DNA from: an uncultured Nitrososphaerota archaeon | GTDB taxonomy: Archaea; Thermoproteota; EX4484-205; JAAOZO01 | NCBI GenBank assembly: GCA_964408285.1 | Contig: CAYOYV010000002.1 | Location: 32,001-96,000, forward strand | DNA length: 64,000 nucleotides | Direction: 5' to 3' | Shown: positions 32,009 through 55,406 of the stretch, piece by piece | How positions within the stretch are numbered: position 1 is the first letter of the stretch | Layout: each line of letters begins with the position of its first letter | Made by a program: the position numbers and the translations under genes | Notes under the pieces: model-generated | Database searches by the model: none | Told to the model about the DNA's origin: nothing | Seen by the model: only the letters and a program-made list of their open reading frames with translations

Positions 32009-32021
32009 GGAACCGTTCACC

Positions 32022-32029
32022 TTTTTAAG
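32022..32029 (+). promoter_or_regulatory. Putative TATA box for herA-nurA
   Basis: TTTTTAAG ending 28 nt before the herA ATG, inside the 49-nt lhr-herA gap. Confidence 0.5.
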
Positions 32030-32057
32030 CCGTTCGCTAATTCTAGAAGTTGTAATC

Positions 32058-33518
32058 ATGTCGGTCTCCGGTTTGGAAAGGGTTGGCATTGTTGCCAGTG
32101 ATTCAAGTGAGGCAAAGGCCAGGCTTCTCCTTGAGGAATCAAGGGAACTGACCGTGAGAGCGGAGGAATTGGTTGTGATTGAGACTCAGAAAGGCGAAGT
32201 CTTGGGAGTGCTCCGAATAGGGAGTGGAATCAACGAGGCACTCAACCCCAATGCTTACAGGCCAAGCATTGCATACGCCAAGAAGGGAGGAATCCCCTCT
32301 GGAGCCAGGGAGATATATACATTCGACATTCATGTAATGGGCGTAATAACTGAGAAAGGGCTGGAACAGAATCGTCTGATCATTCCCCCAAGGAGCAATG
32401 TCTACATCTTCCCGGAAGCTGCTCGCAATCCCCTGGAACATGTTGCCGTGGGCAAGGAGGTGGTCTGGAACGCCCATCTGGATAGGCATGAGAATTGGAA
32501 GATCCCGTTCGACAAGACATTCCTAGCATACCACATAGGCGTCTTTGGAGCTACAGGTAGCGGGAAGTCATGGTTGACCCGATATGTCATAGTTCCTGTA
32601 CTTCTCGAAGCAGGGATGAAGGTCTTGATGCTTGACTGGGGAGGAGCCGACTATGTACCGCATTACGGAAAGAAAGCTATCTCCATGTCTGATCTCAAAC
32701 TGGACGATGAAGCAATTGTGAGATATCTACTTCAGAAGGCAGAGCACTTCGGCTACACCGGGCAGATGAGGGATTCCAATCCAGTGAGGGAGGCCTTGGA
32801 AGATTTTGTCTCAAAACAATGGGAAGAGGAGTGCAGGAAGGAACCTGAGATGATATACATCGACATGAAGAACTACCTCAGGAATCACATTGATGAGGCT
32901 GTCACCAGAGATGATTTCAGGAGGGCAGCTAGGCGACGCATGGATTATGGCTTCAAGAAACTGGATGCATTTGACTTGGGGGCAGTACGGGGCACTTTGG
33001 CACTGGAGGATCTCATCTCAGACCTGAGGAATGAGGAAGGAGGTCTGAGGGTGATAGATATGAGCTTGGTTGGAAGCGACGAGAAGCTGTCGCTGTTCAA
33101 TTCCCTTGCCAGGTTCTTGGAAGATGAGATGGAAATCGGGAAATCGCTCAACATGGCTCTGATTGTGGATGAAGCCCCCCAATACGCTCCTTGGGAACCG
33201 AGGGGGATTCAGGGTGAGGCGACAGAACACATAAAGAACCTTTGTGCTCTTGGAAGAAAACACAACCTTTGCATGTCACTGATCTCCCAGGGAATAGCGG
33301 GAGACATAGGAATCAACGCAGCAGTGAGGAGGAATCTGAATACTCAATTCTTTGGGGCTCTACATCCGCTTGACATGATGGAGGCTGACAACTGGCTCAA
33401 GCCCTATGGCATTCAGAAGGAATATCTCCTATCCCTTAGGCCAGGTCAATTCTATTTTGTCGGGAAGGCAAATCCCTCTCCAATTCCTCTCCTGATAACC
33501 TTCAGGCCGGAGACCTGA
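32058..33518 (+). CDS. herA: HerA/FtsK-family ATPase (DUF87) with N-terminal HAS-barrel-like region
   Basis: HIGVFGATGSGKS (Walker A), LIVDEAP (Walker B), GRKH Arg finger, ISQ sensor, L.PGQF. Confidence 0.9.
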   Translation: MSVSGLERVGIVASDSSEAKARLLLEESRELTVRAEELVVIETQKGEVLGVLRIGSGINEALNPNAYRPSIAYAKKGGIPSGAREIYTFDIHVMGVITEKGLEQNRLIIPPRSNVYIFPEAARNPLEHVAVGKEVVWNAHLDRHENWKIPFDKTFLAYHIGVFGATGSGKSWLTRYVIVPVLLEAGMKVLMLDWGGADYVPHYGKKAISMSDLKLDDEAIVRYLLQKAEHFGYTGQMRDSNPVREALEDFVSKQWEEECRKEPEMIYIDMKNYLRNHIDEAVTRDDFRRAARRRMDYGFKKLDAFDLGAVRGTLALEDLISDLRNEEGGLRVIDMSLVGSDEKLSLFNSLARFLEDEMEIGKSLNMALIVDEAPQYAPWEPRGIQGEATEHIKNLCALGRKHNLCMSLISQGIAGDIGINAAVRRNLNTQFFGALHPLDMMEADNWLKPYGIQKEYLLSLRPGQFYFVGKANPSPIPLLITFRPET

Positions 33519-33524
33519 TCCCTC

Positions 33525-34724
33525 ATGTCGGAGGACTCACACTCTGCCTGGAGCAAACTGCCCATAGATCTTCAAGAGCAGTTCTACGGCAAAGTGGAGC
33601 AGGAAGCCAGGAGCCTGATAAAGGTCCTACAAGAGAGTGGAGTCGCCCTTGAGGAGGCAAAGCCAAAGATAAGGCCATACATACATGCCTCCACATTCGG
33701 AACCGACACGAATACGAAGATAGGGGCTGTGGATGGGTCATTCTCCCCTAGGGCAAGTGAGAGGATTGGGGGTAGATTCGCGGTGTACTCTGCAGGATTT
33801 CTGATGCTAAAGGACAAAGAGATTACAGATGAAGGCTATTGGGGAGACGATTTCAGACAAGATCAATCATATCCTCATCCTCTATTCACAGCAGGGTTGC
33901 AGGTCATCGAGTCCGAAATCGAGAAGGAAGCTTCACTGCGAGCGTTGGAAAAAAACCCAGACCTGCTTCTCGTCGATGGCGGCTTCCTTGGATTCGCATA
34001 TTCTTTATTCAAGATCAGAAAAGAAACAAGCGTTCCGGATTGGCTGGAGAAAAGAGCCCAACATGCTCTGGAGATGACGTATAGATTGCTGGACTCCGGA
34101 AAGTGCGCAGGAGTTGTCAAGAGGGGAAGAAGCAGAGCAATAGGAGGGTGGCTGTCGATGTTGGCAAGAAGAAGGAGCCCTCTTGTTAGATATCTTGACA
34201 AACAGATATTGTACGCCATGATGTCACCCCCTTCGGTTCTAGATTACGCTGAGATCCTAGGACGGCCGGGTTTCCACAGAACACATACAAGAATCAGTGA
34301 GCTTCTAGACAGTGGAAGAACAACGGACCCAATCGAGGCAATGGAAGAGGCTAAGTTCTGGGCTGTGAACTCAATGGCAAAAGCTCTCGGAACCACCGAC
34401 GAGAGAAAGATCAGGGATTTGGAATCACGCATTAACAGGATTCAAATCAGGGTCAGCGAAGATGCTCCTCCCTTTGAACTGGAGCTGGCAGCAGGTTCCG
34501 AAGACCGAATCATGAGAGCTTTGTTCTCAAGCTCGGATAACTTCAATCGGGCAACTGGACTCCCTATCGCGATAGATCTTGTCGATGAATATGTGTCCCT
34601 CCCCATGGAGTTCACAAAGGAATTCGTGACAGAGGTCGAGGCTAGATTGGCACAAATGTACGAAGGGGATCTAAACGACGTAAAAGGATTTTTCTCGAAT
34701 ATGAATCCTCAGAAAGAGTCGTAG
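33525..34724 (+). CDS. nurA: NurA-family nuclease
   Basis: GAVDGS and LLLVDG acidic motifs, GVVKR, terminal GLPIAIDLVD; 6 nt after herA. Confidence 0.85.
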   Translation: MSEDSHSAWSKLPIDLQEQFYGKVEQEARSLIKVLQESGVALEEAKPKIRPYIHASTFGTDTNTKIGAVDGSFSPRASERIGGRFAVYSAGFLMLKDKEITDEGYWGDDFRQDQSYPHPLFTAGLQVIESEIEKEASLRALEKNPDLLLVDGGFLGFAYSLFKIRKETSVPDWLEKRAQHALEMTYRLLDSGKCAGVVKRGRSRAIGGWLSMLARRRSPLVRYLDKQILYAMMSPPSVLDYAEILGRPGFHRTHTRISELLDSGRTTDPIEAMEEAKFWAVNSMAKALGTTDERKIRDLESRINRIQIRVSEDAPPFELELAAGSEDRIMRALFSSSDNFNRATGLPIAIDLVDEYVSLPMEFTKEFVTEVEARLAQMYEGDLNDVKGFFSNMNPQKES

Positions 34725-34825
34725 GTGGTGTCAGGATAAGCAGATAATACAAGCAAATGTGAGACCAGAGATCGGAATTACGAATCTCTTATATAGCTTT
34801 GGGGCTCTGCCTTAATAGCAGAAAA

Positions 34826-37456
34826 ATGAGAAGAGAAGAAATGGGATTAGTAGGCCTCTCGTTCTTGATTCTCTTACTGTTATCGTATGTCACTCCAAGC
34901 ATGCTCTATATGGCATCAGCTCCTGTGTCCGAACTCGCTAGGACATTTTGGCCAACTGATGATGCCCAAATCTATCAGAAATACCCAGATTCCAACTACG
35001 GTGGTCTTACATGGGTGGCCGTCCAGAGCGCGACTTCTGAGAATTGTCGCGGCTTGCTACGCTTTGACCTGAGCAACATCCCGCCCGGTGCCAAGGTGAT
35101 TTCAGCAAGGGTGTATCTGTTCAAATACATCGCACCTTCGGTATCGAGAACGTACTACTGCCATCCCGCCAGTAGTTCCTGGTCAGAAAGCTCACTAACC
35201 TGGAACAATCAGCCAGGAATATACACAACAGGATCAACCACGGTTATAGGTACGACTCCAAGCACATGGTCAAGCTGGGATGTGGCTTCATCGGTTCAGA
35301 AGTTCGCGGCGAGAGATGCTGCCAGTGCCGCATCAAACTACGGATGGAAGATAGGGGATAATAGTGAAGGTTCGGTCACTACTTATCAATCCTTCTTCTA
35401 TTCGAAAGAACACAGCGATGCTGCATATCGACCCTATCTGAGACTGACATATTATCCCCCTCATCTTGAACTCCAAACATATGGCTCGTCATTCGTTGCC
35501 GGGAATTGGGTCAAGATGACAGTGAATAGGAAGGATTACGATAACAACCCAATAACCAGGGGTAATCTCAATGTCAAGATGACCTCAACTTCAACTTCAC
35601 TGAACAAGAAATTCTCTCTGTCAGAGGGAGGAGCAGCTATTACAAGCTTGGTTATTCCAGACGGTTCAAGCTCCAAGGACTTCTGGTATTATGATGACAA
35701 GGCAGGGACTTGGACAATCCAGGCATTCACTGACGATTACATGTACTACGTGAGCGGAGTTCCCCCGTACATGATATTTGAGATGAACTACGGCGATGAT
35801 AAGGCGCAGCAGACTGTGAATCCGGCCGCTCTGGATCGTTTCGTCCTGAATACGATATCGTCTCCCAAGACTGCTGGGGAAGCCTTTATGATAACTATCA
35901 CAGCAAAGGATGTCTACGGCAACACTGTAACAACCTATACCGGCACGAATTCGCTTTCAGACACGACTGGAACAATGGCGCCACCGTTGACGGGTGCCTT
36001 CGTGTCTGGTGTGTGGTCCGGGAATGTAATCATCAATAAGGTCGCTTCCGCAGTTAGGATTTCAACGTCAGGGGGAGGGAAGACAGGGCAAAGTAACGCT
36101 TTCGATGTGAAGGCTGGCCCCCCAGCGAAAATTGCCATAAAGCCAGCGACATTGACTGCTGCTGCAGCAGTCCAATATTCTTCAATCACACTTTCTATTA
36201 GGGACAGTCACGACTTCAATACTTCAAGTGCCTCGGCGATAGTCATCGCGCTATCTACAACATCCCCTGACGGGGAGTTCAGGAATCCAGGAACTACGAC
36301 GAGGATAACCAGCATCACCGTGCCTCCCGGCGCGACTTACGTGCTTGTTGACTATTTTGACATAAGAGGTGGGACTTGGATACTCACCGCCTCTGCTGCG
36401 GGCTTGAGTTCTGGAACAGCAACGGTCACTGTAATCCCTGATACTAGGCCACCGGAAACCAGCATTAATGCCGGTTCTCCCAAGTATCAGACCAGCACAA
36501 CTCTATATGTTACAGATCTCACAGCATTTACGCTCTCTGCTATTGACGACGCTAGCGGAGTAAAGGAGACCAAATACAGGATAGACACCGGGCCCTGGAC
36601 TCTATATTCAGGAGATTTCAATCTGGGTACGTACTCCGAAGGGACTCACACCATCGGATTTTACAGTGTTGACAGGGCAGGCAATTCAGAGCCTGAGAGA
36701 ACTCTATCCGCTTTCATCGACAAGACACCTCCCCGGGTCCAGATCATAGAGCCAGTGGGATCGGTCGTGGCCAAGACAGCTTCTGTCAGATTTAGGGCCT
36801 CAGTTGTGGAAACAGGTTCTGGCATTGCCACTATTGAGTGCATACTTGATGGAACATCAAAGGGCCCGATGGCAAAGGAAGGAGAGGCATATGCAATTAC
36901 CTTGGATGTTGTGCCTGGAATGCATAGATGGAGTGTTGACGCAGTAGACAATATTGGAAACACCTTGGGGGCAACTGCTGAGACTCAATTCATCCTGACA
37001 ATCGATACTGATCCCCCAGTCATATCAAACGTTGCTCTCTCCCCTCCGTCACCTGTTTGGATGGAGCAAATCAAGGTGTCTGCCTCGATAACAGATGCGG
37101 CATCGGGCCTGAAGCAAGCCACCCTATATTACTCAACCGATAGTGGTGCAACTTGGAGCAAGATCACCATGACTCCGACCGCAGGAGCCTTCGAGGCCAC
37201 AATTCCCGCCCAAGGACCAATGGCGAAGGTACAATACTACATCGAGGCCTCGGACCTGCTTGCGAATACAACCAGAAACTCCACTCAGGAGATCTCAATA
37301 GGAATACCGATCTGGGGTTATGGCGCTGGAGGCCTGATCATCGTGCTGATTCTTATATTCCTACTGACAAGGCTCACGGGTAAGCCTGCTCAGGTGCCCT
37401 CGCCCACTTACCCACCACCCCCTCAGCCCCAACCTCCTCCGCCGCCACCTCCCTAG
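34826..37456 (+). CDS. Cell-surface protein: DNRLRE/CBM96-like domain, Ig-like repeats, C-terminal TM anchor and Pro-rich tail
   Basis: Signal/TM; DDAQI....PDSNYG, GLLRFDLSNIP....ISA.VYL, W.E..LTWN.QP, FYSKE....RPYL; repeated DT.PP Ig starts, YSVDRAGN.E. Confidence 0.85.
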   Translation: MRREEMGLVGLSFLILLLLSYVTPSMLYMASAPVSELARTFWPTDDAQIYQKYPDSNYGGLTWVAVQSATSENCRGLLRFDLSNIPPGAKVISARVYLFKYIAPSVSRTYYCHPASSSWSESSLTWNNQPGIYTTGSTTVIGTTPSTWSSWDVASSVQKFAARDAASAASNYGWKIGDNSEGSVTTYQSFFYSKEHSDAAYRPYLRLTYYPPHLELQTYGSSFVAGNWVKMTVNRKDYDNNPITRGNLNVKMTSTSTSLNKKFSLSEGGAAITSLVIPDGSSSKDFWYYDDKAGTWTIQAFTDDYMYYVSGVPPYMIFEMNYGDDKAQQTVNPAALDRFVLNTISSPKTAGEAFMITITAKDVYGNTVTTYTGTNSLSDTTGTMAPPLTGAFVSGVWSGNVIINKVASAVRISTSGGGKTGQSNAFDVKAGPPAKIAIKPATLTAAAAVQYSSITLSIRDSHDFNTSSASAIVIALSTTSPDGEFRNPGTTTRITSITVPPGATYVLVDYFDIRGGTWILTASAAGLSSGTATVTVIPDTRPPETSINAGSPKYQTSTTLYVTDLTAFTLSAIDDASGVKETKYRIDTGPWTLYSGDFNLGTYSEGTHTIGFYSVDRAGNSEPERTLSAFIDKTPPRVQIIEPVGSVVAKTASVRFRASVVETGSGIATIECILDGTSKGPMAKEGEAYAITLDVVPGMHRWSVDAVDNIGNTLGATAETQFILTIDTDPPVISNVALSPPSPVWMEQIKVSASITDAASGLKQATLYYSTDSGATWSKITMTPTAGAFEATIPAQGPMAKVQYYIEASDLLANTTRNSTQEISIGIPIWGYGAGGLIIVLILIFLLTRLTGKPAQVPSPTYPPPPQPQPPPPPPP
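37412..37453 (+). repeat. Low-complexity CCN tract encoding PPPPQPQPPPPPPP
   Basis: 14 codons before the stop, 12 of them Pro. Confidence 0.9.
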
Positions 37457-38441: not shown

Positions 38442-39977
38442 ATGAGTGGGATTAGGTTCAGATATTCCGGCATCGTCGCATTCTCTGCCAATATCCTTTC
38501 GGTCCTCACGGGTCTTATCTTCTCGGTTGTGGTGACAAGGAGGTTATCGGTGCAGGAGTTTGGCACTTGGCAATTCTACTCGAGCTCATTAGCATATTTC
38601 GCCTTGCCCTCATATATAGTGAATTACTGGCTCACAAGGAACATTGGCCGTGGCAAGAGTGCTGTGAATTCAGCTCTGACGTTCAATGCCGTTTTCTCTT
38701 GGCTGGCGACGATCCTTTTCTTCGCAACATCGATTGTTCTGACGAACTACGCTTATGCTTCCAATGAGGTGATTATAGTCTTCGGGATTTGGCTCCTAAC
38801 GTCATATCTCTCTTCCACAACTGACGCCGCTGCCTCCGGTTCGCTTCCACACTTGTACGGATACGGGGTAGCGGTGTTTGAACTGGCCAAGGTCATCTCT
38901 GGCGCGATTCTAGTTGCTTGGCTAAGACTGGGGCTTGCAGGAGCCGTGATTTCCGTCGATATCGCACTATTACTGAGGTTCGTCCTTCTGTATTTCCTTG
39001 TTCCAGAGTCTCTAAAAGGGAGGATTGGGTTCTCAGAGGCATTTGGCTGGCTCAGGAGATTCTGGATTCCGCTAACCAGTGTTTTGCCGGGTCTGATATT
39101 CTCCCTAGATGTAATTCTTGTAACCATAATAACGGGCAATCCAACTTCCGCTGCGTATGTCAGAGCCTCCACGACCTTTTCGATGGTGATTCTATTCTCC
39201 AACTCCCTTTCCATCGCACTGTATCCGAAGCTTCTATCTGGAGGTGGTAGAAAGGAAATCGAGGACTCCCTAAAAATGGTAATGATGTTTGCGATTCCGA
39301 TGTTCTTGGGCATTTTCTTCCTTGCCGAACCATTGCTCTATCTTCTAAGGGCTCAGTATGCCACCGCGGTATGGGTATTGAGAGCCTACGCAACTCTACA
39401 TTTCCTGGGAACGATCAAGGCGATTCTTATCACGATTCTTCTTGGCACAGAGAAAGTCGACATTGACGAAACGGCAACATACAAGGAATTCTCGTCTTCA
39501 TCGTTGATGAAGGTGCCAATGGCCGACATTCTCAATTCATCGATATATATCGGCGTGATTCTAGTTTCGTCCTTCTGGCTGAATTCTATTGGAACCGAAC
39601 CTGTGATGCTCTCACTGAGTCTGGCAGTTATCTACATTGTGGCAATGCTGCCATTTCTCCTATACTATTGGAGGGCCTCGAAGAGAAGAGTGGAGTATTC
39701 GTTCCCGGTTGGGAGTCTCGCAAGATACCTCGCAGCAGGTTCAGTGATGGTTTGCTTCCTGTTGTTCTTCTTCCCAACTGGAGCTATGAGCGAGCAGATA
39801 TTCAACGTCATGGTGTCCCTACTTCCAGTGATCGGGGTAAGTGCCATCCTATACTTCTCAGTTCTGATCGCAATAGATGGAGAAACAAGGCAGCTCGTCG
39901 TATTGGTGCTAGCGAGAATTGAGAAAATCATCAAAGACCTCCAGTCTCCCATTACTCAATCCGACAAGGGGCAATAG
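38442..39977 (+). CDS. MOP-superfamily oligosaccharide flippase / polysaccharide export protein
   Basis: About 14 TM; TRRLS.QEFG.W, LG..GAV, LYPKLL, LA.PLL.LL...Y..A. Confidence 0.8.
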   Translation: MSGIRFRYSGIVAFSANILSVLTGLIFSVVVTRRLSVQEFGTWQFYSSSLAYFALPSYIVNYWLTRNIGRGKSAVNSALTFNAVFSWLATILFFATSIVLTNYAYASNEVIIVFGIWLLTSYLSSTTDAAASGSLPHLYGYGVAVFELAKVISGAILVAWLRLGLAGAVISVDIALLLRFVLLYFLVPESLKGRIGFSEAFGWLRRFWIPLTSVLPGLIFSLDVILVTIITGNPTSAAYVRASTTFSMVILFSNSLSIALYPKLLSGGGRKEIEDSLKMVMMFAIPMFLGIFFLAEPLLYLLRAQYATAVWVLRAYATLHFLGTIKAILITILLGTEKVDIDETATYKEFSSSSLMKVPMADILNSSIYIGVILVSSFWLNSIGTEPVMLSLSLAVIYIVAMLPFLLYYWRASKRRVEYSFPVGSLARYLAAGSVMVCFLLFFFPTGAMSEQIFNVMVSLLPVIGVSAILYFSVLIAIDGETRQLVVLVLARIEKIIKDLQSPITQSDKGQ

Positions 39978-39979
39978 AG

Positions 39980-42900
39980 TTATCTCGTTTCTACTCCCTC
40001 GGCTGGTTGTTCGTATGTCAAGAGTAGCTTTTCAGCTTGGACTTCTGTGTATTTGCTGCCCGAGATTATCGCGACGTTCTTTTTCAGGATGATGCTGGCC
40101 AAAGTCATCGCAGAGCTGATGGCCCCGTCGTCTGAGTCTATTGTGACCGTGTCCACATCCCTGAGTTCCTCCACGAGTCTGGATACAGTGCCCTGTGGAT
40201 TCTCCACCGATATCTTCCTGACTTCTATAGCAGGCGGCCAAATGCCCTCCCTCCACAATTTCCTCTTCAGCTCATTCATTTTCTGAGTCGTTTCTCCTCT
40301 TGAATAGACTATGAGAAGCTGCGGATGATATACCCTAACTAGAGAGAGGAGGGGCTCAATTGAACTTCCGAATGGAGCAGCAACCCTTGCCTTCGAGGCG
40401 GTCCACTCGAATACCAGCCTCCTTATGTGAGAAGCGACTTCGTGGACCTGTGTCTCTGCCATCTTGGGGTATGCGGAGTCTGGGTTTACCCTGAGTGAGA
40501 CCTGAAATCCAGTTCCTTCTCCGCTTTTGACTTCTATTGTATTATTCGAGGTGAATCCCTTGTTTCCGCTTCTGCTGTACTTGAACCTAACAGAGTGAAG
40601 AGGCCTACCATATTCGTCAACAGTGGACTTCTTTGAGACTTCGCCTATCAGTATCTCTAGTTGCTTCCCGCTTGCCGGCAACCTTTCGGCCAGATAATCG
40701 ACCAGAATATTCACCTTCTCTTGGGGAACTCGGGCAGGTATTTGCAGGATCCATTCATTTCCTATCTTCGCATGTTCCTCAAGCTTCCACTTAATCCTGA
40801 GAGAAGGCGTTGCAATTCTCGATGCGGTAAATGCAGGGATTGCTGCGCCTATCACGGAGACCAATACAGAGATCCCGACTATTGAGAGCATGTCGCCTGT
40901 TGATGTCTTGACGTCGACGGGTATTGAAACGCCTCCTAGAGAGAAAAGACGGAATGCGGCGAAACTCAGCAGATAACCGATTCCTCCACCTATTATTCCA
41001 AGCATAGCTCCCTCCGCCACATGGAGAAGGAATATGTGCGTTGGATTCAGGCCCACAGCGGAAAATGCGAATATCTCCGACCTTCTCTCTTGGACCGATG
41101 AGAGCAAAACCACTAGTATGTTGAGGACGATTATGACAAGTGGGATAATTGCTGAAACTCCCGTCAGCTCATTGACGGAACCCCTGAAGAAGAAAACCGG
41201 ATTCCCACCACTGGGAAGTGCGAGGGCATAGAAATTAGCGAGCAAAGACAGCCTTTCTCCCGCAGAAAGAATGTCCTCGCTACGGACTTCACAATACAGT
41301 TTTGACACCCTTGCTCCAAGTTTCATTGAGGTGGTGTCAGACGCAAGCAATAGGAATTCCGGGTCAACAGTAGTGTTCAACGCTGCCGGGCCTGCGACGA
41401 TCTGTATTGGCAGCCATTCCGCTCCATCTGGGTCCTTTAGACTCCTCAGTCTTGAACCATCGAAAACTCCAACAATCAACAGCTTGACATTCTTGAACAC
41501 CAATGACATGCCGACTTCCAGTCCCTGTGATCTTGCAACGTAGTCACTTATGAGAACGGAATTTCCCTCCAAGAATAATCTGTCTGTTGCGTTTCGAGGA
41601 TTGGTTGATGCCTTGATAACATCAATGTTTGGATCGCCTTTCGCTATTCCTCTCACGGCCATTATCGTAACTGAGCCTATCTCCCCTATGCCAGACTGGG
41701 ATGGGGGCGATTCAGCCTTCGCATAGGCCCCTATTAGGCCCGACTGGCTTGAGACAAAGTCCAAATCAATCCGAGTGAAGAATCCAGTGGGTTTTGACAC
41801 CAGAATAAGACTTGGGCTTTCGAGTGGCCACCTGGAATTCATAACGAATTGGCTAGCCCCAATAGTTGTCCTCATCGCGCTGAAAGTCGATAATCCCAAC
41901 ACAAACGTGGTAAGGGATATCAGGGATAGCAGTGTCCTTGTCTTCCTTTTCTTCATGTTCCCTGACGAGTAAGAAATGGCCAACATTATGGCGGGGACTA
42001 GGCTGACCCCTCCCTCACTCCTATAGTTGCTCATCAGCCTCGGCAAGAGGAAGAAAAGAATCAAAGCCACGAACAGGAAATAGGATCCGATTATGGCCTC
42101 CCCGAAGGAGAATTGAGCAAATCCAGGATATGTCTGATACACGATCGTCATCACCACTGCGAATGAGATAACAAGGAAGACTACTTCATCGCTGATCTTC
42201 TCAAACAACGAACCTGCCAAAGCAACGCAGACCAAGATCACAAGAGCGAAGATGGCCACTTGGCTGGTCGTCGCGCCCTTGTATATTGTATTCATAGCAC
42301 CCAGTATGTTCATGCTGACCAAGTACGCCCTCTTCTGGGCTTCTGCACCAACAGCAGGATTCACTGTTGAGTTGAATAGGATCAAGGCTCTGTCTATTTC
42401 TTCTAGCCTTTGGGATTCCAGGCCAAGATAGAACCCCTGCAAGCTCTGCTTCTCCACCGCCTTCTTGGCCTGTTCCACCATTCTATCGACCAGCATTTGA
42501 TTCCTAGCAACCAACATTGAGGCGAGTGAGGTGGAATTCACCGTCTCGCTTTCCTCCGCAATCAGAGGCATCGAAGCATTCCCCAACGAGCCATAGATTA
42601 TCTCATTGCCGATCCTTGCCTTCAGGGTGATTGCCAGAGGGATGTCAGAGGGAATTACAATGCTGCTGGGGTCTATGTTGAGAAGCCTGAGGTAAACGGC
42701 GTTCGTACTGGTGTAGTTCGTAACGAGGCTGGTTCCTTTTGGCAAAGCATAGACCTTCTCGAAAAGGACTCCGATTGCTTTGAATGATAGCTCGATGTCC
42801 GGGATTCTGTCTTGAGATATCTCAGTGACGAAGTTTGCTATTTTGACAATGGAACCTGGGATTAGGGTCAGATTAGCCGATTTCCTGTCGCCCGGGTTCG

Positions 42901-45427
42901 CATTGCCAAGACTCGCAATGACAGGAACATATACGCGATCTGACTCAATCACGGGGCCCCATAGCTCCAATCTACTTGTGCTCGGCATGCAAGTATAGGC
43001 CGAGCCGTTACGGACTTCCAAGAACCTGTAGGAATCACCCAGGACTAGCAGGAACAGAGAACGCGAAGGCATTTCGGCCCCAGTCAAAGAAACCTGCAAA
43101 GCAGCTGCCGCCCTGACGGAGAAGTCAAAGTGATTTACATCCTGAATGGAACCGTTGTTTGACTCGATGTACGTTTCGAATCTCAGACGATGACTCGAGT
43201 CCAAAAACGCTGGCATACGCAATGGAAAATGCCCAGCAAGAAAGGGCACCGAGTCGCTGCTTGGGATTGTTACGTTGAAAATGCCTGAATCCATGATTGA
43301 AGAGGTTGTCAGATCCAAGAGCCTCCAACTAAGCCTAGCGTTCTTCGCAGCATTCGGATCGTCATTGACTATCCAAACGTTGAGTCTGACAAGGGTTTCG
43401 AGGTCGCAGCTTAGCTCGGTACGCTTTGTGATGAAATCCCCTGCCCATTCTATGATCGCATGAGTCGGCCTAAACGCCTCGGAGACAATAAGACTGGAGG
43501 ACTTCTGCGTCCCATAGTAGTCCAATAGAGAGCCGGATACGGAGGGAAGGTAGTCCCTGAATAATCCTACAGTGATCCCTTCGGTATAGTTCCCCTTCAA
43601 CAACCTTGCCCTTTCAATTGCCGTCTTCAATATGGTGGCCTGATATCCCTGGCTCTCGTTCACGTAGTCAGAAAGGCTCTTGTATTCCTCAGGATTACCA
43701 AGATAGGAATACCATAGATTTGCTGAATAGCCATAGCCCTCCAACGAACGAATTAATCCGGAGGAGATCTGGTTTCCTTGGAACATAGACCAGAAGATAG
43801 ACTGAGCTGAAGGAAGGGATTGAGATCCCAATACGACCGGGAATGCCGACAAGTAGGATCTATAATTCTCCCAAGTCCGAGAACCCCATCCGAAATTCAG
43901 GAATTCATTCTCACTGCCAGAACCTTCTATGGTATGTCTATCGTGGTCCAACTCGCCCAACAACTCGGACAGAGACGCATCTGCCATCCTGTTGGCTCCT
44001 AATCTGAATAGATCTCCTGCACTTTCATCTGTCCAAGGGGGGAGTGTGTGAATACACCAGAGGACAACGCTCGGGCTGTTGTAGAGCATAAGTACCAACC
44101 TGATCAGTTGTCTCTGTGCCTCCCTCAAGGCCTCTTTGTCTGTGTCCAAAGACTTGGCATATCCGATCAAAGGCAGATCGCCCTGGACCATGAAGCCGTG
44201 GGCGTCAGCGTATTCATAGAAAGCAAGGGGTTCAACATGTGCGATTGGTCTAAGGAAATTCACATTCATCTTGCGAAGTAGCTCATAGTCCGCGGCCAGA
44301 TTGGCTGTTGAAGATGTGAAATTGTATGGATCCGATACATACGTTGTCCCCCTTAGGAAAATTCGTCTTCCGTTAATCGAGAACCTGGATCCAGTGTTAC
44401 CAAAAGCTGCCACGAAATCTCTGAAGCCAAATGCTCCGCTTATAGAGCCCTGACTTTTCGAGCCAACGAGCAGCTCGACCTTGAACTGATAGAGGTTCGG
44501 AGAGCCAAGATCCCAAGTTGACCAAGGAAGTGGATTTCCCGCTGCCAGATTCGCTTCCACCCACTTTGCCTCACCTGGATCAAGATCTGCCTTAATCCAG
44601 GACATCAAGGGTGATTCCTTCGAGCCGTCTAGACTCACCGACAAGGAGATGTCTGTTGAAGCCTTTGCTGTACCGGTGTTCTTTACGAACAAACGGAAGT
44701 TTGCACTTGCGCTGCCCCCTAGGGTCCCAGCAACAAGCGCGAGTTGAACGACAGTGCTGCCCGTTGTTGCCAGTTCGACATCATTCCACAGACCGATAGG
44801 CATTGCCGGATCTGTGCCAATTGGACCAATGCTTTGCCCAATGGGTCCGCTTGTTCCGTAGAGGCCAGTTAGGAGCCCGATCGACTCCTTATCTACAAGT
44901 GAATCAACGAACACCGTCAGCAGATTGTCAGAACCATGAACAAGGACATTAGTCACATCGAAAAAGAAGGGAGAAAAATATCCTGTGTGAGAACCTAGGT
45001 ACCTACCATTGAGCCAAACATCTGCCTTTGCCCAAACGCCCTTGAAGACGATAATGTATCTCTCCCCCTTCAATTCAGTAGGCGGCGTGAAGGTCCTCCT
45101 AAGCCAGAGCGTGGAATTATGTCTCGTAGACTTGAATTCAAAGGGGACGACAACCTTGTTCCAAGAGCCATCATCATAGGATTCTTCGTAATATAATTCA
45201 TAGTTGCCCCGCTCGAATGTGTCGTAGACATATTTCCATTCTCCGCTAAGTGAGATCTTAGTAATCGCGAAATAGTTGGGTTGTATGAAGGTTTGGAGCA
45301 CCTCTTCCGTTATCCCCTTCTCAGCCGGAACTATGATGTATTGTAGAATTGGAAGGAAGGCGATCCAAATCGTGAACAATGCGATTAGGACCGAAGACAA
45401 CAAGCGCAGCCTCGTCCTATTCACCAA
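39980..45427 (-). CDS. 1815-aa fusion: TM anchor, GH2-like ectodomain (apparently non-catalytic), MacB/FtsX-type permease, cytoplasmic domain and CARF-like C-terminus
   Basis: GH2: SLSGEW, LWLRRTF, FKGV..KADVWLNG.YLGSH.GYF.PF.FDVT, W..WDLGSPNLY, FGFR, INGRRIFLRG, AHVEP..FYE.AD..G. FtsX: RKTRTLL.L, SVQERRSEI..FSAVGLNP.HI..L...EG, PA..ASR..TP. Confidence 0.88.
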   Translation of the reverse strand: MVNRTRLRLLSSVLIALFTIWIAFLPILQYIIVPAEKGITEEVLQTFIQPNYFAITKISLSGEWKYVYDTFERGNYELYYEESYDDGSWNKVVVPFEFKSTRHNSTLWLRRTFTPPTELKGERYIIVFKGVWAKADVWLNGRYLGSHTGYFSPFFFDVTNVLVHGSDNLLTVFVDSLVDKESIGLLTGLYGTSGPIGQSIGPIGTDPAMPIGLWNDVELATTGSTVVQLALVAGTLGGSASANFRLFVKNTGTAKASTDISLSVSLDGSKESPLMSWIKADLDPGEAKWVEANLAAGNPLPWSTWDLGSPNLYQFKVELLVGSKSQGSISGAFGFRDFVAAFGNTGSRFSINGRRIFLRGTTYVSDPYNFTSSTANLAADYELLRKMNVNFLRPIAHVEPLAFYEYADAHGFMVQGDLPLIGYAKSLDTDKEALREAQRQLIRLVLMLYNSPSVVLWCIHTLPPWTDESAGDLFRLGANRMADASLSELLGELDHDRHTIEGSGSENEFLNFGWGSRTWENYRSYLSAFPVVLGSQSLPSAQSIFWSMFQGNQISSGLIRSLEGYGYSANLWYSYLGNPEEYKSLSDYVNESQGYQATILKTAIERARLLKGNYTEGITVGLFRDYLPSVSGSLLDYYGTQKSSSLIVSEAFRPTHAIIEWAGDFITKRTELSCDLETLVRLNVWIVNDDPNAAKNARLSWRLLDLTTSSIMDSGIFNVTIPSSDSVPFLAGHFPLRMPAFLDSSHRLRFETYIESNNGSIQDVNHFDFSVRAAAALQVSLTGAEMPSRSLFLLVLGDSYRFLEVRNGSAYTCMPSTSRLELWGPVIESDRVYVPVIASLGNANPGDRKSANLTLIPGSIVKIANFVTEISQDRIPDIELSFKAIGVLFEKVYALPKGTSLVTNYTSTNAVYLRLLNIDPSSIVIPSDIPLAITLKARIGNEIIYGSLGNASMPLIAEESETVNSTSLASMLVARNQMLVDRMVEQAKKAVEKQSLQGFYLGLESQRLEEIDRALILFNSTVNPAVGAEAQKRAYLVSMNILGAMNTIYKGATTSQVAIFALVILVCVALAGSLFEKISDEVVFLVISFAVVMTIVYQTYPGFAQFSFGEAIIGSYFLFVALILFFLLPRLMSNYRSEGGVSLVPAIMLAISYSSGNMKKRKTRTLLSLISLTTFVLGLSTFSAMRTTIGASQFVMNSRWPLESPSLILVSKPTGFFTRIDLDFVSSQSGLIGAYAKAESPPSQSGIGEIGSVTIMAVRGIAKGDPNIDVIKASTNPRNATDRLFLEGNSVLISDYVARSQGLEVGMSLVFKNVKLLIVGVFDGSRLRSLKDPDGAEWLPIQIVAGPAALNTTVDPEFLLLASDTTSMKLGARVSKLYCEVRSEDILSAGERLSLLANFYALALPSGGNPVFFFRGSVNELTGVSAIIPLVIIVLNILVVLLSSVQERRSEIFAFSAVGLNPTHIFLLHVAEGAMLGIIGGGIGYLLSFAAFRLFSLGGVSIPVDVKTSTGDMLSIVGISVLVSVIGAAIPAFTASRIATPSLRIKWKLEEHAKIGNEWILQIPARVPQEKVNILVDYLAERLPASGKQLEILIGEVSKKSTVDEYGRPLHSVRFKYSRSGNKGFTSNNTIEVKSGEGTGFQVSLRVNPDSAYPKMAETQVHEVASHIRRLVFEWTASKARVAAPFGSSIEPLLSLVRVYHPQLLIVYSRGETTQKMNELKRKLWREGIWPPAIEVRKISVENPQGTVSRLVEELRDVDTVTIDSDDGAISSAMTLASIILKKNVAIISGSKYTEVQAEKLLLTYEQPAEGVETR

Positions 45428-45485: not shown

Positions 45486-47894
45486 TTGGATAGCTCGCAG
45501 AGGATTTCTTTGGCGTCTCAGGTCTTCAGTGCTTTGAAGGCAAGGATCATCTTGATCTTGATGATCGCAATTTTGGTCTTTGCCCTTGCGTCCATAAAAA
45601 CACTGTTCAGGGAAGGCATGATCCTTGGTCGGGACCATCCATTCCACATGCTTAATTGCTACTTCACAACGCTCTATATGTTACCGTCATTCAACATTCT
45701 TGGTTGGGATCCATACAACAACTATGGCTTGGTCTTCAATCAATACTACGATGCCGGGACGAACATCCTCATATCTCTGATCTACTACGCCTCCCTGGAA
45801 CAGCTGAATATATTCGATTCCTACAAGGTTGCCTTCGCACTTGCCTATGTTCTCATGGCACCGGTTACCTACCTCTTCATTTATTCGATTTCGAAGGATA
45901 AAATGGCCGGGTTGGTGGGAGCACTGCTTTCCATAATCGTGTTCCCAGCCGAGTCTTCCTTGTTCGATGCCGGTTTAAGACAAATGTACGAGACAGGAAT
46001 GTGGCCTGAGAGATTCGGCAACGTACTCTGCTTTTTCGGTCTTGCTCTACTGATTCTGTCCTTTGAGGAGAAAAGCCTCTCGAAGAGGCTGCTGACAACG
46101 GCATGGACTTCTGTGATTTTCGCCTGGACCGTCTTGACTCACGTTGTCGCAGGCCTATCTTTGGCTTCACTGGCAGCAGTCGGATGGCTCCTGCCAAGTC
46201 TCCATGACATCAAGTCCGCCATTACCGAAAGCAAAGACGGAATTCCTGGAATGGTCACGACAATTCTGCATCAGAACCGGAGGAAAACGTTCTCCTATCT
46301 CTCGGTTTGGGCCCTTTCCATCGGCCTGTGTGCTTTCTGGACTATTCCCCTCCTGGAGACTTTAGAGAAGTTTTACAGCTTCCCCGCTATCTCCTCATCG
46401 GGGGGGACAGACATGCTTGTCCAGGTATTCCAGAGCCTCCCATGGTATGTGTTGGGTTTCTATGTCATAGGGGCCGCAACACCTTTTCTCGACAGGAGAC
46501 AGATAAGGAATCCTCTTGCGATTGTGTCCCTTGCATCAGTCCTACTTCTTCAGATCCTGTCGTTGGTCAACCCAAACGACAAGTTCGTTGGGACAAGGTT
46601 GGTCTTCTCCGCATTGTTCTCCCTCATCTACTACCTGACAACTGATGATTACGCTGTTGGTTTTTCCCTCACCGGGACCTCACTTCTCCTTCTTCTTTCC
46701 ACGGGTCCAAGCACGCATGTGATCGATTTGCTCATCTTCAGACTGGACCTTTCGAACGCATTCTCCGTCGTTGCCTCTTTCGGGTATTCCAAGTTCGCCT
46801 CGGTGGCGCGGCTTGTGATTGTCATACTGTCTTCGATCGGATTCTCAAGATTGGCCAGCTTCCTTTATGCTCATGCTAGAACCGCTGGCTCCAAGAGGGA
46901 ATTCGTCCCTGTCGTCTATTCAATCGTGCTTGGATTCATGATCTTCCTATTCCTCAACTTCCAGATCAGCACTCAGATGGAGAATACTGATCTGAACTAT
47001 CCCTGGTCCCAGCAGATCAACCTGAAGCTCTCATCCGATTTTCGACTTGTGAGTCAAGCCGATTCGCTGATCTCATGGATCAAGCAGAACGGGGATAGCA
47101 ATTCCTACATCTTGATGCAGGACATCCTTGATATCGGAGACTGGATGGGTTTCCCGAAATCCCATTATCTGTACCTTACACCGGTTTTCACTGGAAAACC
47201 CATCGTGGGAGGAGTAGAGGGCAGCAACTATATCACCAATCCGATCTCCACTACCGACGGGGGCCAAATTCTGTCAATGCCAATCTCCAGGATAGTTGGG
47301 GAACTGGGCACATTCGACAGGCTGCTGGGAGAATTGGGAATAGGCCATGTTGTGGTCTTCGATATTAGATTGATCAAAGCCATGAATGCCAGCAGCCTGT
47401 TCCGCCTCTCGTACTATGACGGGTTATTTGCCGTCTTCAGAAGAGCAGAGCCCGCGTACATAGCCAGCGTTCAGAACGCCGGGGAAATCCTTGAAGCGAC
47501 CTACGAGATAAATGCGATGTCCTTCAAGGTCTCTGGGGCTGAAGGCAACTCGTCACTTCGTATAAGAGCTGTCGATTATCCGGGATGGTCTGCCAAGGTG
47601 AACGGAGAAAGCACAGAGATTCATCAGTATCGCCCTAAGATACAATCAGTGATGAATTGGAAGGGGGTCGTCGTTCCGGACTATGAAGTCCCATTCATTG
47701 AAATCTCATTGCCCGCCGGTCAATCACGAGTAGTTCTTGATTACCATAGGTCAACGGCCGGGGACTCGATCACAGGTGTCTCGCTTGTGCTGTTTGCCGC
47801 CTTCAACCTGCTTGGATCAGCCGTAATCGTGAAAGATCTCTATGCTAAGAGTGGTTCATCTGTCAAACATGCTGCGTTGAAGGGATTTCAGTGA
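45486..47894 (+). CDS. Polytopic YfhO / PTPS-related membrane protein, probable GT-C glycosyltransferase
   Basis: First loop GRDHPFH...GWDPY..YG..FNQYY, more than 12 TMs, LTH, AFW.IP, C-terminal YPGWSAKVNG beta domain and final TM. Confidence 0.78.
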   Translation: MDSSQRISLASQVFSALKARIILILMIAILVFALASIKTLFREGMILGRDHPFHMLNCYFTTLYMLPSFNILGWDPYNNYGLVFNQYYDAGTNILISLIYYASLEQLNIFDSYKVAFALAYVLMAPVTYLFIYSISKDKMAGLVGALLSIIVFPAESSLFDAGLRQMYETGMWPERFGNVLCFFGLALLILSFEEKSLSKRLLTTAWTSVIFAWTVLTHVVAGLSLASLAAVGWLLPSLHDIKSAITESKDGIPGMVTTILHQNRRKTFSYLSVWALSIGLCAFWTIPLLETLEKFYSFPAISSSGGTDMLVQVFQSLPWYVLGFYVIGAATPFLDRRQIRNPLAIVSLASVLLLQILSLVNPNDKFVGTRLVFSALFSLIYYLTTDDYAVGFSLTGTSLLLLLSTGPSTHVIDLLIFRLDLSNAFSVVASFGYSKFASVARLVIVILSSIGFSRLASFLYAHARTAGSKREFVPVVYSIVLGFMIFLFLNFQISTQMENTDLNYPWSQQINLKLSSDFRLVSQADSLISWIKQNGDSNSYILMQDILDIGDWMGFPKSHYLYLTPVFTGKPIVGGVEGSNYITNPISTTDGGQILSMPISRIVGELGTFDRLLGELGIGHVVVFDIRLIKAMNASSLFRLSYYDGLFAVFRRAEPAYIASVQNAGEILEATYEINAMSFKVSGAEGNSSLRIRAVDYPGWSAKVNGESTEIHQYRPKIQSVMNWKGVVVPDYEVPFIEISLPAGQSRVVLDYHRSTAGDSITGVSLVLFAAFNLLGSAVIVKDLYAKSGSSVKHAALKGFQ

Positions 47895-48285
47895 AGGGAA
47901 CCAACTGTCAATAATCGCATATGGAAATCGCCACCTGTTCAGAGCACGACTCCGAGCAGCACAATCAGAGCTCACAGAAGATGAGCTCGCGTTAAATGTG
48001 ATTCCAACTAATACCAAGCTAAGTGAAAGACAAATGGAGATATGAGGCAGAATAGGCAAATGGGGAAGATCCAGAATCAGCAAAGAAATCGATTGGAAGG
48101 AAATGGCCAAAGACCTTAGGGCTGACCTCGGTAGATCAGCATTCGCCTCCAGAACCACATATTACTTCAGCTGAAGAAGGGAGGTGGCGCACTAGGTTGA
48201 GAGGCTTTCTAAGACAACTATTCCTAACATATCGTGAGCTTGCCTTAAATACGGTTGTGAGAAGGAACTAAACAAGGTGAGAAAC

Positions 48286-49512
48286 ATGGCAGAGAAGATC
48301 GTCGTCGAACCTGGAAGAACTGCGGATTTGGACACCTTCGATGGAGATTTGGTGGCAGGTGGAAATTCGGTCATCAAATCCAAGTCAGGAGGCCCAATCG
48401 TGGTGACGGGCACGGCTAAATTCAAGGGAGATTGCAACATTCATTCCAATTTCCAAGCCAAGAACGTAAGGGGAGAAGACGGGAGAATCCATGTGCTTGG
48501 TGATCTTACGGTCGATGAATCAATTGATGTCCGAGAGGGGGAAGTCTTGGTTGATGGCCAAGCAAAAGCCAAGGAAATAGATGTCGAGAGGAGGCTGACG
48601 GTCAAAGGAGACCTGCATTCAGAGAGGGTGGACGTCGGGGGAAGTCTAGAGGTCGGGCGAGACTCCAATGTTACAAGAGTCAATGTGGGAGGAACCATGT
48701 CAATGAATGGCAATCTGAAGGGATCACAGCTGGATGTAGGTGGGTCGGCTGATGTAAGAGGAACAGTTGAACTTGAGAAGCTCTCTGTAGGCGGAAGCGC
48801 GAAGGTGGGATCAGGAACAATAAACTACATATCAGTGGGTGGATTCCTTGAGTCAACCGGGAAGCTCAGGTTTCGAGAAATTGATGTAGGAGGCGCAGTA
48901 AGATTGGCCTCTGGGGAAGGGGAAGGAATAATCAATGTCGGCGGAAAGGTGGATGTTGATGGAGACATCGAATTCAAGGAAATCGACGTTGGAGGGATGG
49001 CAACGATCAGAGGCAATGCAAAGGGCAAGAAGGTAGAGGTAGGAGGGAAGCTCAGAGTGGACAAGAGCGCGAAGATAGATGATAGTCTCGAAGTCGGTGG
49101 ATCAGTCGACGTCCATGATGACCTCAGCGGAGGCGACATTGAAGTGGGAGGCTCTCTTCGAAGCAACATATGCATAGCACGCAAGGTGAGAGTTGGCGGA
49201 AGGGTCGAGACGGAAAAAGGAACCAAGGCGGATGTCTTCGAGATAGGAAAGCGTGGGAATGTGAGAGGCCCTATCGTCGCAACCCGCGTAAGGATTGCAG
49301 ATGGAGCCCAGGTCGAGGACATCTATGCAGACGAAGTGGAAATTCGCAGGAATTCCTCCGCTCGAAATGTGTTCGCAAGAGCAGCAAGGATTGAAGGTGG
49401 ATGTGAAATCTCGGGGGAGGTGTTGTACACGGATAGGTTGGATTCCGACAGGGATGTTCAGTTCGGTTCAGAGCCCAAAAAAGTAGAAAAACTGCCGGGC
49501 CCCCCCGTTTAG
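48286..49512 (+). CDS. Bactofilin-like (polymer-forming) beta-helix repeat protein
   Basis: 12 successive hxVGG repeats at about 16-18 aa period; SD-like GGTGA before ATG 48286. Confidence 0.8.
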   Translation: MAEKIVVEPGRTADLDTFDGDLVAGGNSVIKSKSGGPIVVTGTAKFKGDCNIHSNFQAKNVRGEDGRIHVLGDLTVDESIDVREGEVLVDGQAKAKEIDVERRLTVKGDLHSERVDVGGSLEVGRDSNVTRVNVGGTMSMNGNLKGSQLDVGGSADVRGTVELEKLSVGGSAKVGSGTINYISVGGFLESTGKLRFREIDVGGAVRLASGEGEGIINVGGKVDVDGDIEFKEIDVGGMATIRGNAKGKKVEVGGKLRVDKSAKIDDSLEVGGSVDVHDDLSGGDIEVGGSLRSNICIARKVRVGGRVETEKGTKADVFEIGKRGNVRGPIVATRVRIADGAQVEDIYADEVEIRRNSSARNVFARAARIEGGCEISGEVLYTDRLDSDRDVQFGSEPKKVEKLPGPPV

Positions 49513-54974: not shown

Positions 54975-55406
54975 TTGTGGTTGAGTATCAGAGACCAGGG
55001 GATTTTCCTCAATGAAATCGAGGTCCCTTCGGTTCAAGTCGCTCGCGTTGCAGGAGTCGACAGATGTATCATGGGCGAGACGGTAAATGCGATAATCGCT
55101 GACGAAGAGTTGAGGAAGATGTTCGGGGCCTTAAGGTCGTCGGGGCACTCATTGAAGGAGATAGCCAGACATTTGGATTTGGGAGTAGTCGAGATAACCC
55201 CTGTCACCGCAAGGATACCGGGCATATTGGAGAATTCAGCCATGATCATTGCGAGAAGTGGACTGAGCATTAGACAGTCGATAGTGGACGATCCAGGGCT
55301 TTCACCCGAGCCAAAGCTTACTCTGATAGTGGAAAAAAAGATACCAGGGGAATTGATCTCGGAATTCCTGAAGATATCCGGCGTTGCCAAGGTTTCCATA
55401 TACTGA
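54975..55406 (+). CDS. Archaeal HTH-ACT amino-acid-binding regulator, apparently N-terminally truncated
   Basis: IEVP.VQVARVAGVDR, PGIL..SA..IA..GLSIRQ....DP.L.PEPKLT; in-frame TGA at 54939. Confidence 0.7.
   Translation: MWLSIRDQGIFLNEIEVPSVQVARVAGVDRCIMGETVNAIIADEELRKMFGALRSSGHSLKEIARHLDLGVVEITPVTARIPGILENSAMIIARSGLSIRQSIVDDPGLSPEPKLTLIVEKKIPGELISEFLKISGVAKVSIY

Follow-up and report, generated by a model that had tools for sequence, protein, structure and literature searches.

The question raised by this locus is whether the cytoplasmic end of a large archaeal membrane permease carries a CARF (CRISPR-associated Rossmann fold) domain and, if so, what such a domain would sense there. The window, meaning the whole stretch of DNA analysed, comprises 64,000 nucleotides from an uncultured Nitrososphaerota archaeon (GenBank assembly GCA_964408285.1, contig CAYOYV010000002.1, positions 32,001 to 96,000), and the focal gene occupies 39980..45427 on its minus strand, where an open reading frame (ORF) of 1815 aa encodes a GH2-like (glycoside hydrolase family 2) ectodomain followed by a MacB/LolE/FtsX-type permease, then by a linker domain in the cytoplasm and last by a CARF domain. 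A first-pass annotation, made by eye from the sequence, had proposed a CARF-like fold at 40020-40390, which corresponds to residues about 1680-1803 of this minus-strand ORF (residue 1681 lies at 40385-40387 and residue 1800 at 40028-40030); the CARF-superfamily, Rossmann-like domain was delimited here as residues 1675-1815 (39983..40405, minus strand), with a folded core at 1681-1806. These residues are almost certainly a member of the minor family CARF_m8, and overall a cytoplasmic sensor for a ligand other than cyclic oligoadenylate (cOA), or else a dimer latch, on a MacB-type permease was the most likely reading of the evidence.

The protein was matched nearly from end to end by the PADLOC-DB profile PDLC01990, 'CARF_m8--CARF_Beta-galactosidase_LolE_TM' (residues 4-1802 aligned to positions 3-1787 of the 1791 in the model, E = 0, 1336.8 bits), indicating that the whole fusion of GH2, LolE/FtsX and CARF parts is a curated minor CARF family. 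A second profile, PDLC01991 ('CARF_m8--CARF_LolE_TM'), covered residues 983-1802 at 1.2e-167, and the CARF domain alone matched these two CARF_m8 models at 5.2e-29 and 9.4e-28. Links to other CARF families were found through relatives: for proteins P0061 and P0054, the models of CARF1, CARF3, CARF4 and Csx1 gave E-values between 1.7e-7 and 3.5e-5. Of these cross-family links in sequence, the best was to the CARF4 models (1.7e-7 for P0054 and 6.3e-6 for P0061). Sub-threshold Pfam CARF matches were obtained for four of the 20 relatives scanned, namely P0061 with CARF_Card1 (1.1e-4, 22.6 bits where the cut-off is 24.6), P0054 with CARF_Card1 (7.5e-3), and P0040 and P0031 with HFX_2341_N (3.2e-3 and 0.075, respectively).

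No structural difference separated the focal protein from CARF_m8, of which it is a member with the same architecture from end to end; a short CARF_m8-type form without the GH2 region also occurs, in relatives that measure about 1100 aa and begin with CarboxypepD_reg. The fusion is therefore already catalogued and not new, and what is added here is the family-wide acidic loop, the cas-free context across 32 loci and the predicted symmetric dimer. The 'CARF_m' style of label is tied to Makarova et al. 2020, to which a passage of PMC12409355 credits the families named CARF7 and CARF_m13. Our literature search found no experimental work on the CARF_m8 family, and no publication on this CARF-permease fusion, on CARF with FtsX or LolE, or on archaeal fusions of FtsX with glycoside hydrolases, relevance to LolE and to such fusions being judged by title or abstract.

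The fold was examined in an AlphaFold2 model of residues 1675-1815 alone, built from a 50-row alignment (model numbering plus 1674 gives the protein numbering), together with tail alignments of 48-49 relatives inspected by eye. The model had a mean predicted local distance difference test (pLDDT) of 91.1 and a predicted template modelling score (pTM) of 0.83. DSSP assignments on the AlphaFold2 models described a Rossmann-like core of alternating strands and helices with a closing beta5-beta6 hairpin: strands at 1681-1685, 1704-1709, 1733-1738, 1760-1762 and 1784-1789, with helices between them at 1691-1700, 1714-1726, 1744-1757 and 1768-1780, then a strand at 1792-1797 and a helix at 1800-1806. 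The order of elements was identical in a two-domain model that included the linker (residues 1540-1815, pLDDT 90.3). All nine elements of the pattern proposed in the first-pass annotation were reproduced, with a sixth strand and a C-terminal helix in addition, and the peptides quoted there were located at 1681-1687 (RVAAPFG) and 1764-1768 (DSDDG).

When the domain model alone was compared with the PDB by Foldseek, the 11 rows listed at ranks 1-12 were every one a CRISPR-ancillary CARF protein: Csa3 (6wxq, 6w11, 2wte), Card1 (6wxw, 6xl1), Can2 (7bdv, three chains), Cam1 (8t66, 8t65) and Cad1 (9ofb). Their E-values ranged from 1.7e-5 to 1.7e-4 and their query TM-scores (TMq) from 0.50 to 0.65, with root-mean-square deviations (rmsd) of 3.5-6 Å except for Cad1. 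The earliest non-CARF fold, DXP reductoisomerase, stood at rank 13 (TMq 0.38), and further down the list included Csm6, Can1 and the ring nucleases Sis0455 and Sso2081. Csa3 came first for the domain and was also the top match of the two-domain model, and an Atlas feature search, taken as providing leads only, scored clusters with HFX_2341_N, CARF_Card1 and Csa3_N at 0.83-0.87. As modelled, then, the fold is that of a CARF domain, and the call made by eye was borne out both by the structural ranking and by the CARF_m8 profile at E = 0. Against the BFVD viral models, the two-domain model gave low-rmsd matches only to unnamed or SLOG/DprA-like Rossmann proteins. Sequence searches of the PDB with a 12-row profile, with P0061 alone and with a linker-domain profile yielded no significant match to either the CARF or the linker domain, the best of the non-significant matches being the GMP synthase PP-loop (0.29) and the WalK sensor domain (0.03). 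Pfam searches with the C-terminal 276, 146 and 140 residues gave TcdB_toxin_midC as the sole match, at the level of noise (E 0.1-0.2).

The best structural match, Csa3 of Saccharolobus solfataricus (TMq 0.60-0.63, rmsd 3.8-4.3 Å over 135-137 columns), shares 15-16% identity with the domain and differs from the focal protein in the winged helix-turn-helix at its C-terminus, its binding of cyclic tetra-adenylate (cA4) and its location in CRISPR loci. Can2 and Card1, which correspond to the CARF4--CARF_PDDEXK models, were likewise close in structure (6wxw, 6xl1, 7bdv and 8bao, TMq 0.54-0.65), whereas their PD-(D/E)xK nuclease domain is absent from the focal protein and the loop described below is acidic in the focal clade.

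The permease to which the domain is attached was recognized by Pfam FtsX at residues 1425-1538 (5.5e-13, 49.5 bits where the cut-off is 25.5); the NCBIfam ADOP, LolCE and MacB models matched weakly, far below their cut-offs, and MacB_PCD (Pfam) was found in relatives. Hydropathy indicated eight hydrophobic segments with both termini inside: an N-terminal signal anchor (residues 9-27, 45347..45403, minus strand), a hydrophilic stretch at 28-1056, three segments within 1057-1129, a lysine- and arginine-rich loop (seven K/R before the first FtsX helix) and four FtsX-type segments, of which the first two (TM1 and TM2) are separated by an extracytoplasmic domain of about 240 residues. The anchor had a hydropathy of 2.4 over 19 residues and three Arg in front of it, residues 1-9 holding three K/R and no D/E. 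The membrane region as a whole spans residues 1057-1539 (40811..42259, minus strand), in which three extra transmembrane (TM) helices precede the MacB-type permease of four TM helices, and this arrangement, a four-helix FtsX domain whose TM1 and TM2 flank an extracytoplasmic domain, is that of the MacB/FtsX type VII permeases. With eight TM helices and both termini inside, the tail is placed in the cytoplasm; a PDB profile search that included the TM4 residues agreed with this placement, matching the MacB-type chains 5xu1_M (5.7e-7) and 5gko_A (3e-5) as well as MacB, LolC and YtrF chains, all of these matches stemming from the TM4 residues in the linker-domain alignment. The CARF domain is thus very probably cytoplasmic, as the first-pass annotation had supposed, and not extracellular.

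Between TM4 and the CARF domain lies a linker domain of 135 residues (1540-1674, 40406..40810, minus strand), which follows a conserved juxtamembrane motif, TPSLR.KWKLE, and is predicted as a beta-alpha-beta4 unit and a long helix, with pLDDT above 90 over most of its length in the two-domain model. It belongs to no Pfam family and had no significant PDB sequence match. MacB, LolCDE and FtsEX-type permeases normally work with an ATPase. The focal protein resembles them in its FtsX domain above the Pfam threshold, its four TM helices and its large extracytoplasmic domain between TM1 and TM2, and the family consensus keeps the N-terminal 'R-N-L-R-R-R..LRT' helix typical of MacB-type permeases; it differs in having no fused or adjacent ATPase gene and in adding the N-terminal anchor, the GH2-like ectodomain, three TM helices and a cytoplasmic tail of 276 residues. 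No cognate ABC ATPase was fused to it according to Pfam, nor was one conserved within five genes in the 32 loci compared, where the ABC_tran genes encountered belonged to Znu, Opp or Liv sets or lay convergent to one copy without a CARF domain (L028, adjoined by a convergent ABC_tran gene of 230 aa).

The C-terminal 276 residues matched 56 representative proteins at E<=1e-3, and 74 distinct copies of the CARF domain could be aligned over its full length, indicating that the region is not a chance pattern. Named relatives, from Thermoproteota or Nitrososphaeria metagenome-assembled genomes (MAGs), were annotated only as 'FtsX-like permease family protein'. A genome scan gave 69 loci, of which 31 had an ORF bearing the tail module (in two pieces in L025), from Nitrososphaerota, Brockarchaeota, Thermofilaceae and Bathyarchaeia MAGs; full-length orthologues in the related archaeal loci measured about 1790-1830 aa. 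Two architectures were seen, one of about 1800 aa with the GH2 region and one of about 1100 aa with CarboxypepD_reg-type N-termini, suggesting that permease and tail form a chassis with exchangeable ectodomains. Searches with a CARF-only profile recovered only this family, namely six matches of similar length and 11 longer ones, all 11 with FtsX, and at the sensitivity of that profile no stand-alone or otherwise fused form of the domain was found. In the Thermofilaceae locus L025 (3965-9312) the gene was fragmented into successive ORFs of 973 aa (GH2), 309 aa and 147 aa (CARF alone), representing either a frameshifted gene or an assembly error. In several genomes the permease family was represented by two or even three paralogues, in some cases adjacent: L003, L010 and L017 in one MAG, L004 and L011 in another, and the ORFs at 5549-7465, 8957-12178 and 18538-22074 of L032.

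The ligand side of the domain was assessed from the loop that follows strand 4 (D1764-S-D-D-G1768, 40124..40138, minus strand), for which the predicted position is the two-fold axis of the dimer described below. An x-S-D-D-x loop was present in 46 of the 74 distinct domains, position 1766 was acidic (D or E) in 63 and glycine in 10, and a K or R anywhere in 1764-1771 was found in a single domain (n = 1/74). Other positions kept were R1669 and P1702 (both 74/74), W1675 (71/74) and E1795 on beta6 (56/74). The motifs that PMC8699464 gives for Csa3, T-h-G-F-(N/D)-E-x4-R and L-x2-G-h-R, which supply a basic residue for the phosphate, were both not kept in the 74-domain comparison, in which the loop between beta1 and alpha1 has the form P-h-(G/D/E)-x-S; the one following strand 4 bears acids where Csa3 bears a conserved Arg. 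The first-pass annotation had presented DSDDG as an acidic replacement of a usual (D/N)x(S/T)GGx(R/K) motif: the acidic loop is real and a trait of the family. An acidic pocket would argue against an anionic cOA as the ligand and for a cationic or metal-bridged one, or none.

A homodimer of residues 1675-1815 was predicted with a score of 0.60, against 0.00 for the best of three controls. The mark for a pass was reached by 20 of 30 proteins solved as same-chain pairs and by one of 23 solved as single chains, counts that hold only roughly since an alignment of our own was used. The dimer runs agreed in at least 87% of contacts, with a partner pLDDT of at least 82. Two helices (alpha4 and the last one) contribute to the predicted interface, as do the beta1-alpha1 loop, the beta5-beta6 hairpin and residues 1763-1769 (224-230 of the modelled fragment); the latter residues touched their own copies, the pairs 229:229 and 227:227 being among those of lowest error, so that like-charged Asp residues oppose each other across the predicted axis. 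The same elements are described around the Csa3 pocket in PMC8699464, where the two-fold dimer has a pocket formed by the loop between beta1 and alpha1, the one that follows beta4 and the beta5-beta6 hairpin. Since CARF dimers have already been solved, the pass may reflect likeness to them. A dimer of the CARF type is, on these models, a somewhat better than even proposition; the symmetric predicted dimer supports binding of the two copies to each other and does not show it.

The genomic context was compared over about 10 kb on each side of the gene in 32 loci (the window and 31 others), taking the 250 genes within five positions of the focal gene, which formed 112 clusters, and scanning one or more members of every cluster against Pfam. 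CRISPR-Cas components were found in none of the 112 clusters. A single row bore a 'Cas' name, and this was a match of 35 residues to the zinc ribbon Cas12f1-like_TNB, lying at the end of a cation-efflux protein of L014. In the window itself, a Pfam scan of the 48 ORFs of at least 150 aa gave no Cas or CRISPR family and Tandem Repeats Finder gave no arrays, so that the earlier remark on the absence of cas genes from the window holds for the ORFs scanned. The most constant neighbour was a polytopic membrane protein of 802 aa (45486..47894, plus strand), immediately divergent from the focal gene in 18 of the 32 loci, window included, several other loci being cut at a contig end. The other conserved neighbours were UbiA (14 loci), BacA (13), a weak DHHA1 match, NTP_transferase and TrmB (11 each) and DUF4432 (eight), and these conserved neighbours are envelope-glycan genes.

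The 802-aa partner belongs to no Pfam family, and its product P0064 had no PDB sequence match; its Atlas feature scores were 0.98-0.99 to clusters with YfhO in 34-52% of their members, DUF6541 in 47% and PTPS_related in 33%, proteins of a type that we take to be GT-C glycosyltransferases. The DHHA1 match, weak and sub-threshold (E 4e-4), is to a protein of 316 aa, located at L005:16384-17334 and in 10 other loci at position +2 or +3 downstream, where it is accompanied by BacA, NTP_transferase and TrmB; it is absent from that position in the window, whose BacA gene lies at 58838-59767.

On the outer side, the GH2-like region covers residues about 57-531 (43835..45259, minus strand). The GH2 sugar-binding and Ig-like domains were recognized by Pfam above cut-offs at 88-336 (Glyco_hydro_2_N 5.9e-11, Glyco_hydro_2 7.9e-6), the GH2 TIM barrel at 347-459 was weak (19.1 bits, below the cut-off of 21), and the NCBIfam beta-glucuronidase and beta-galactosidase models matched with E-values from 1e-24 to 1e-15, every one of them scoring far under its cut-off. 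Two motifs, which from LacZ and GUS we presume to hold the catalytic residues (the acid/base Glu in N-E and the nucleophile Glu), were compared in 13 aligned orthologues. At the first site (residues 460-465, 44033-44050) the focal protein has H-T-L, whereas nine of the 13 orthologues have H-(N/D)-E; at the second (residues 529-537, 43817-43843) it has P-V-V-L-G, whereas eight of those nine have (T/S)-E-(F/L)-G and the ninth, P0018, has S-D-F-G. Both Glu motifs were absent in the remaining four orthologues (P0001, P0004, P0010 and P0017), and P0005 is an example of an orthologue with both Glu retained. The substitution of both presumed catalytic-Glu positions suggests that the ectodomain of the focal clade is a glycan-binding pseudo-enzyme.

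The acids in place of the Csa3 Arg, together with envelope-glycan rather than cas neighbours, point to a housekeeping sensor for a non-cOA ligand, and we tentatively favour a housekeeping CARF_m8 sensor of a cytoplasmic ligand of that kind, acting through linker and permease on the ectodomain. The functional part of the first-pass annotation, in which the domain would gate the permease and probably not bind cOA, is consistent with the sequence and its genomic context. Two copies would pair about a two-fold axis in the manner of the Csa3 and Can2 dimers, an arrangement compatible with a dimeric MacB-type permease, so that a CARF-type dimer would form beneath the permease dimer. Pairing would join the beta1-alpha1 loop, the DSDDG beta4-alpha4 loop and the beta5-beta6 hairpin into one symmetric pocket for a cytoplasmic, non-cOA ligand, for example a cationic or metal-bridged metabolite. 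Closing or opening of the domain may then be relayed, by way of the linker and the helices of the permease, to the ectodomain of about 1000 residues. FtsE-FtsX and MacB pass ATP-driven movements outward, and the proposed relay would be analogous to theirs, here with no ATPase gene nearby. That the domain is not a cOA receptor is fairly probable, while ligand-gated control of the ectodomain is possible but doubtful. A wider conjecture, which we regard as unlikely, is that CARF_m8 works outside defence in the place of the ABC ATPase on a mechanotransmission machine of the MacB/FtsX type, a non-cOA ligand at the acidic two-fold pocket opening or closing the dimer and so driving the GH2-like ectodomain, together with the conserved YfhO-like GT-C partner, in remodelling or reading the glycan of the archaeal surface.

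Several observations weigh against this reading. With respect to the fold, matches of the domain to CARF models other than those of CARF_m8 were weak (CARF1 0.004, Csa3 0.019), it reached no Pfam CARF model, and the Foldseek E-values were modest (1.7e-5 and weaker), with other Rossmann folds close behind in the ranking. With respect to the ligand, 11 of the 74 domains had no acid at 1766, and in many of these the loop was Gly-rich (of SGG, TGG or NGG type) and could hold phosphate at the helix N-terminus, so that some members may bind an anionic nucleotide; about 20 distant members carried Gly-rich variants such as SGG, TGG, NGG or SGE. A basic residue at 1783 was kept in 71 of the 74 domains. 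PADLOC places CARF_m8 among defence-related profiles, and since only about 10 kb per side were covered, the genomes may elsewhere encode an ABC ATPase or a CRISPR system of type III. Some relatives, L023 (472-4152), L028 (4571-7363) and P0057-P0063, retained the linker domain and ended after it without a CARF domain, showing that the permease can exist without one. Finally, the ligand, the dimer and the gating are all things that we infer.

The alternative that survives best, still doubtful, is that the domain is a ligand-less CARF remnant that merely holds two permease chains together or offers a docking surface. Such a remnant would be consistent with the loss of the canonical basic residue (K/R in the loop in 1/74), with like-charged Asp residues opposed across the predicted axis, with the strongest conservation being structural (R1669, P1702 and W1675) and with the lack of the domain in some relatives. 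The loop, however, is conserved beyond what a contact surface would need, S-D-D being kept in 46/74 and an acid at 1766 in 63/74 despite divergence at the level of phyla, and E1795 and K/R1783 are kept as well (56/74 and 71/74).

A genuine receptor of cyclic oligonucleotides, serving as the membrane effector of a distant type III CRISPR or CBASS-like system in the manner of Cam1 or Cap1, would account for the nearest structures being CARF proteins bound to cA4 or to cyclic hexa-adenylate (cA6), the membrane effector Cam1 (TMq 0.50-0.52) among them, and for the origin of the profile in a library of defence systems; the Gly-rich loops of some 20 relatives also resemble nucleotide-binding turns. 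A passage of PMC9704534 reports fusion to TM domains for many CARF proteins, and CARF membrane pores opened by cA4 are described in the abstract of a preprint (bioRxiv 10.1101/2025.11.13.688252). Like the focal protein, these CARF-TM effectors have a CARF domain attached to a membrane protein, but as PMC9704534 and that abstract present them they are small pore formers, activated by cA4 and encoded with type III CRISPR, unlike a CARF domain set C-terminal to an eight-helix MacB-type permease with an ectodomain of about 1000 residues and no cas linkage in 32 loci. With no cas gene in the 112 neighbour clusters or the 64-kb window, with synteny to housekeeping envelope genes, with an acidic loop in the focal clade, and with the Csa3 motifs given in PMC8699464 not kept, a cyclic-oligonucleotide receptor is distinctly unlikely.

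We consider it quite improbable that the domain is a docking module for a partner in trans, whether a distant ABC ATPase or the cytoplasmic loops of the YfhO-like neighbour, a role in which the CARF-like fold would serve contact between proteins. The need of MacB-type permeases for an ATPase, none being encoded nearby, and the tight divergent pairing with a membrane protein of about 800 aa in 18 of 32 loci would fit such a role; against it, the typical MacB N-terminal helix is kept, and it is that helix rather than the C-terminus that ATPase docking would use, while the predicted self-interface already buries the conserved loop. A generic Rossmann-like fold of the receiver, Toprim, PP-loop or NAD(P)-binding kind is hardly credible, since the weak local likeness of the loop to the GMP synthase PP-loop (E 0.29), the match of one relative, P0043, to OLD-like_TOPRIM_1 (0.017) and the dehydrogenase Rossmann folds from Foldseek rank 13 down are set against curated CARF profiles matching at E = 0, relatives matching four other CARF families at E<1e-5, a motif that lies after strand 4 and has only some 50 residues behind it, the PP-loop of those enzymes sitting after strand 1, and the absence of any Toprim, receiver or PIN structure, the latter two named as refuting folds in the first-pass annotation, from the Foldseek rows listed up to rank 50, neither the PP-loop nor the Toprim match being significant.

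The remaining genes around the focal gene were surveyed in the window. Convergent to it lies a gene for a multi-spanning membrane protein of 511 aa (38442-39977, plus strand), the end of which is 3 bases from the focal stop codon; its product looks by eye like a polysaccharide flippase, has no Pfam or PADLOC family, and forms a singleton cluster not conserved in the related loci. The locus is bordered by genes for a CBM96/Ig-like protein of 885 aa (34799-37456, plus strand) and a bactofilin-domain protein of 411 aa (48277-49512, plus strand), neither of them conserved beside relatives of the focal gene elsewhere. An Lhr-type helicase, HerA and a weak NurA are consecutive at 29132-34724 (plus strand), with the PADLOC labels BrxHI-like and HerA ('Type III coevolved') in this run, and an Lhr helicase was within five genes of the focal gene in four related loci; these are probably DNA-repair genes kept by synteny and not evidence of a defence island. 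Besides housekeeping genes, the window holds many sugar-handling genes at 1-28000 and 55000-64000 (GH35/42, GH127, three xylose-isomerase-like TIM barrels, five GFO/IDH/MocA oxidoreductases, and PfkB and FGGY kinases), a content that fits a glycan-degrading archaeon.

The value of the locus as a discovery is limited by the fusion having been catalogued as CARF_m8. CARF domains are best known as receptors of cyclic oligoadenylate in type III CRISPR immunity; in CARF_m8 the same fold occurs in a housekeeping envelope setting in Thermoproteota, Nitrososphaerota, Brockarchaeota and Bathyarchaeia, with a charge-reversed ligand loop and on a type of permease that normally needs an ATPase. The ligand, if found, would reveal what is sensed by CARF domains outside defence, and in what way a machine of the MacB type can be driven or gated with no ATPase encoded nearby.

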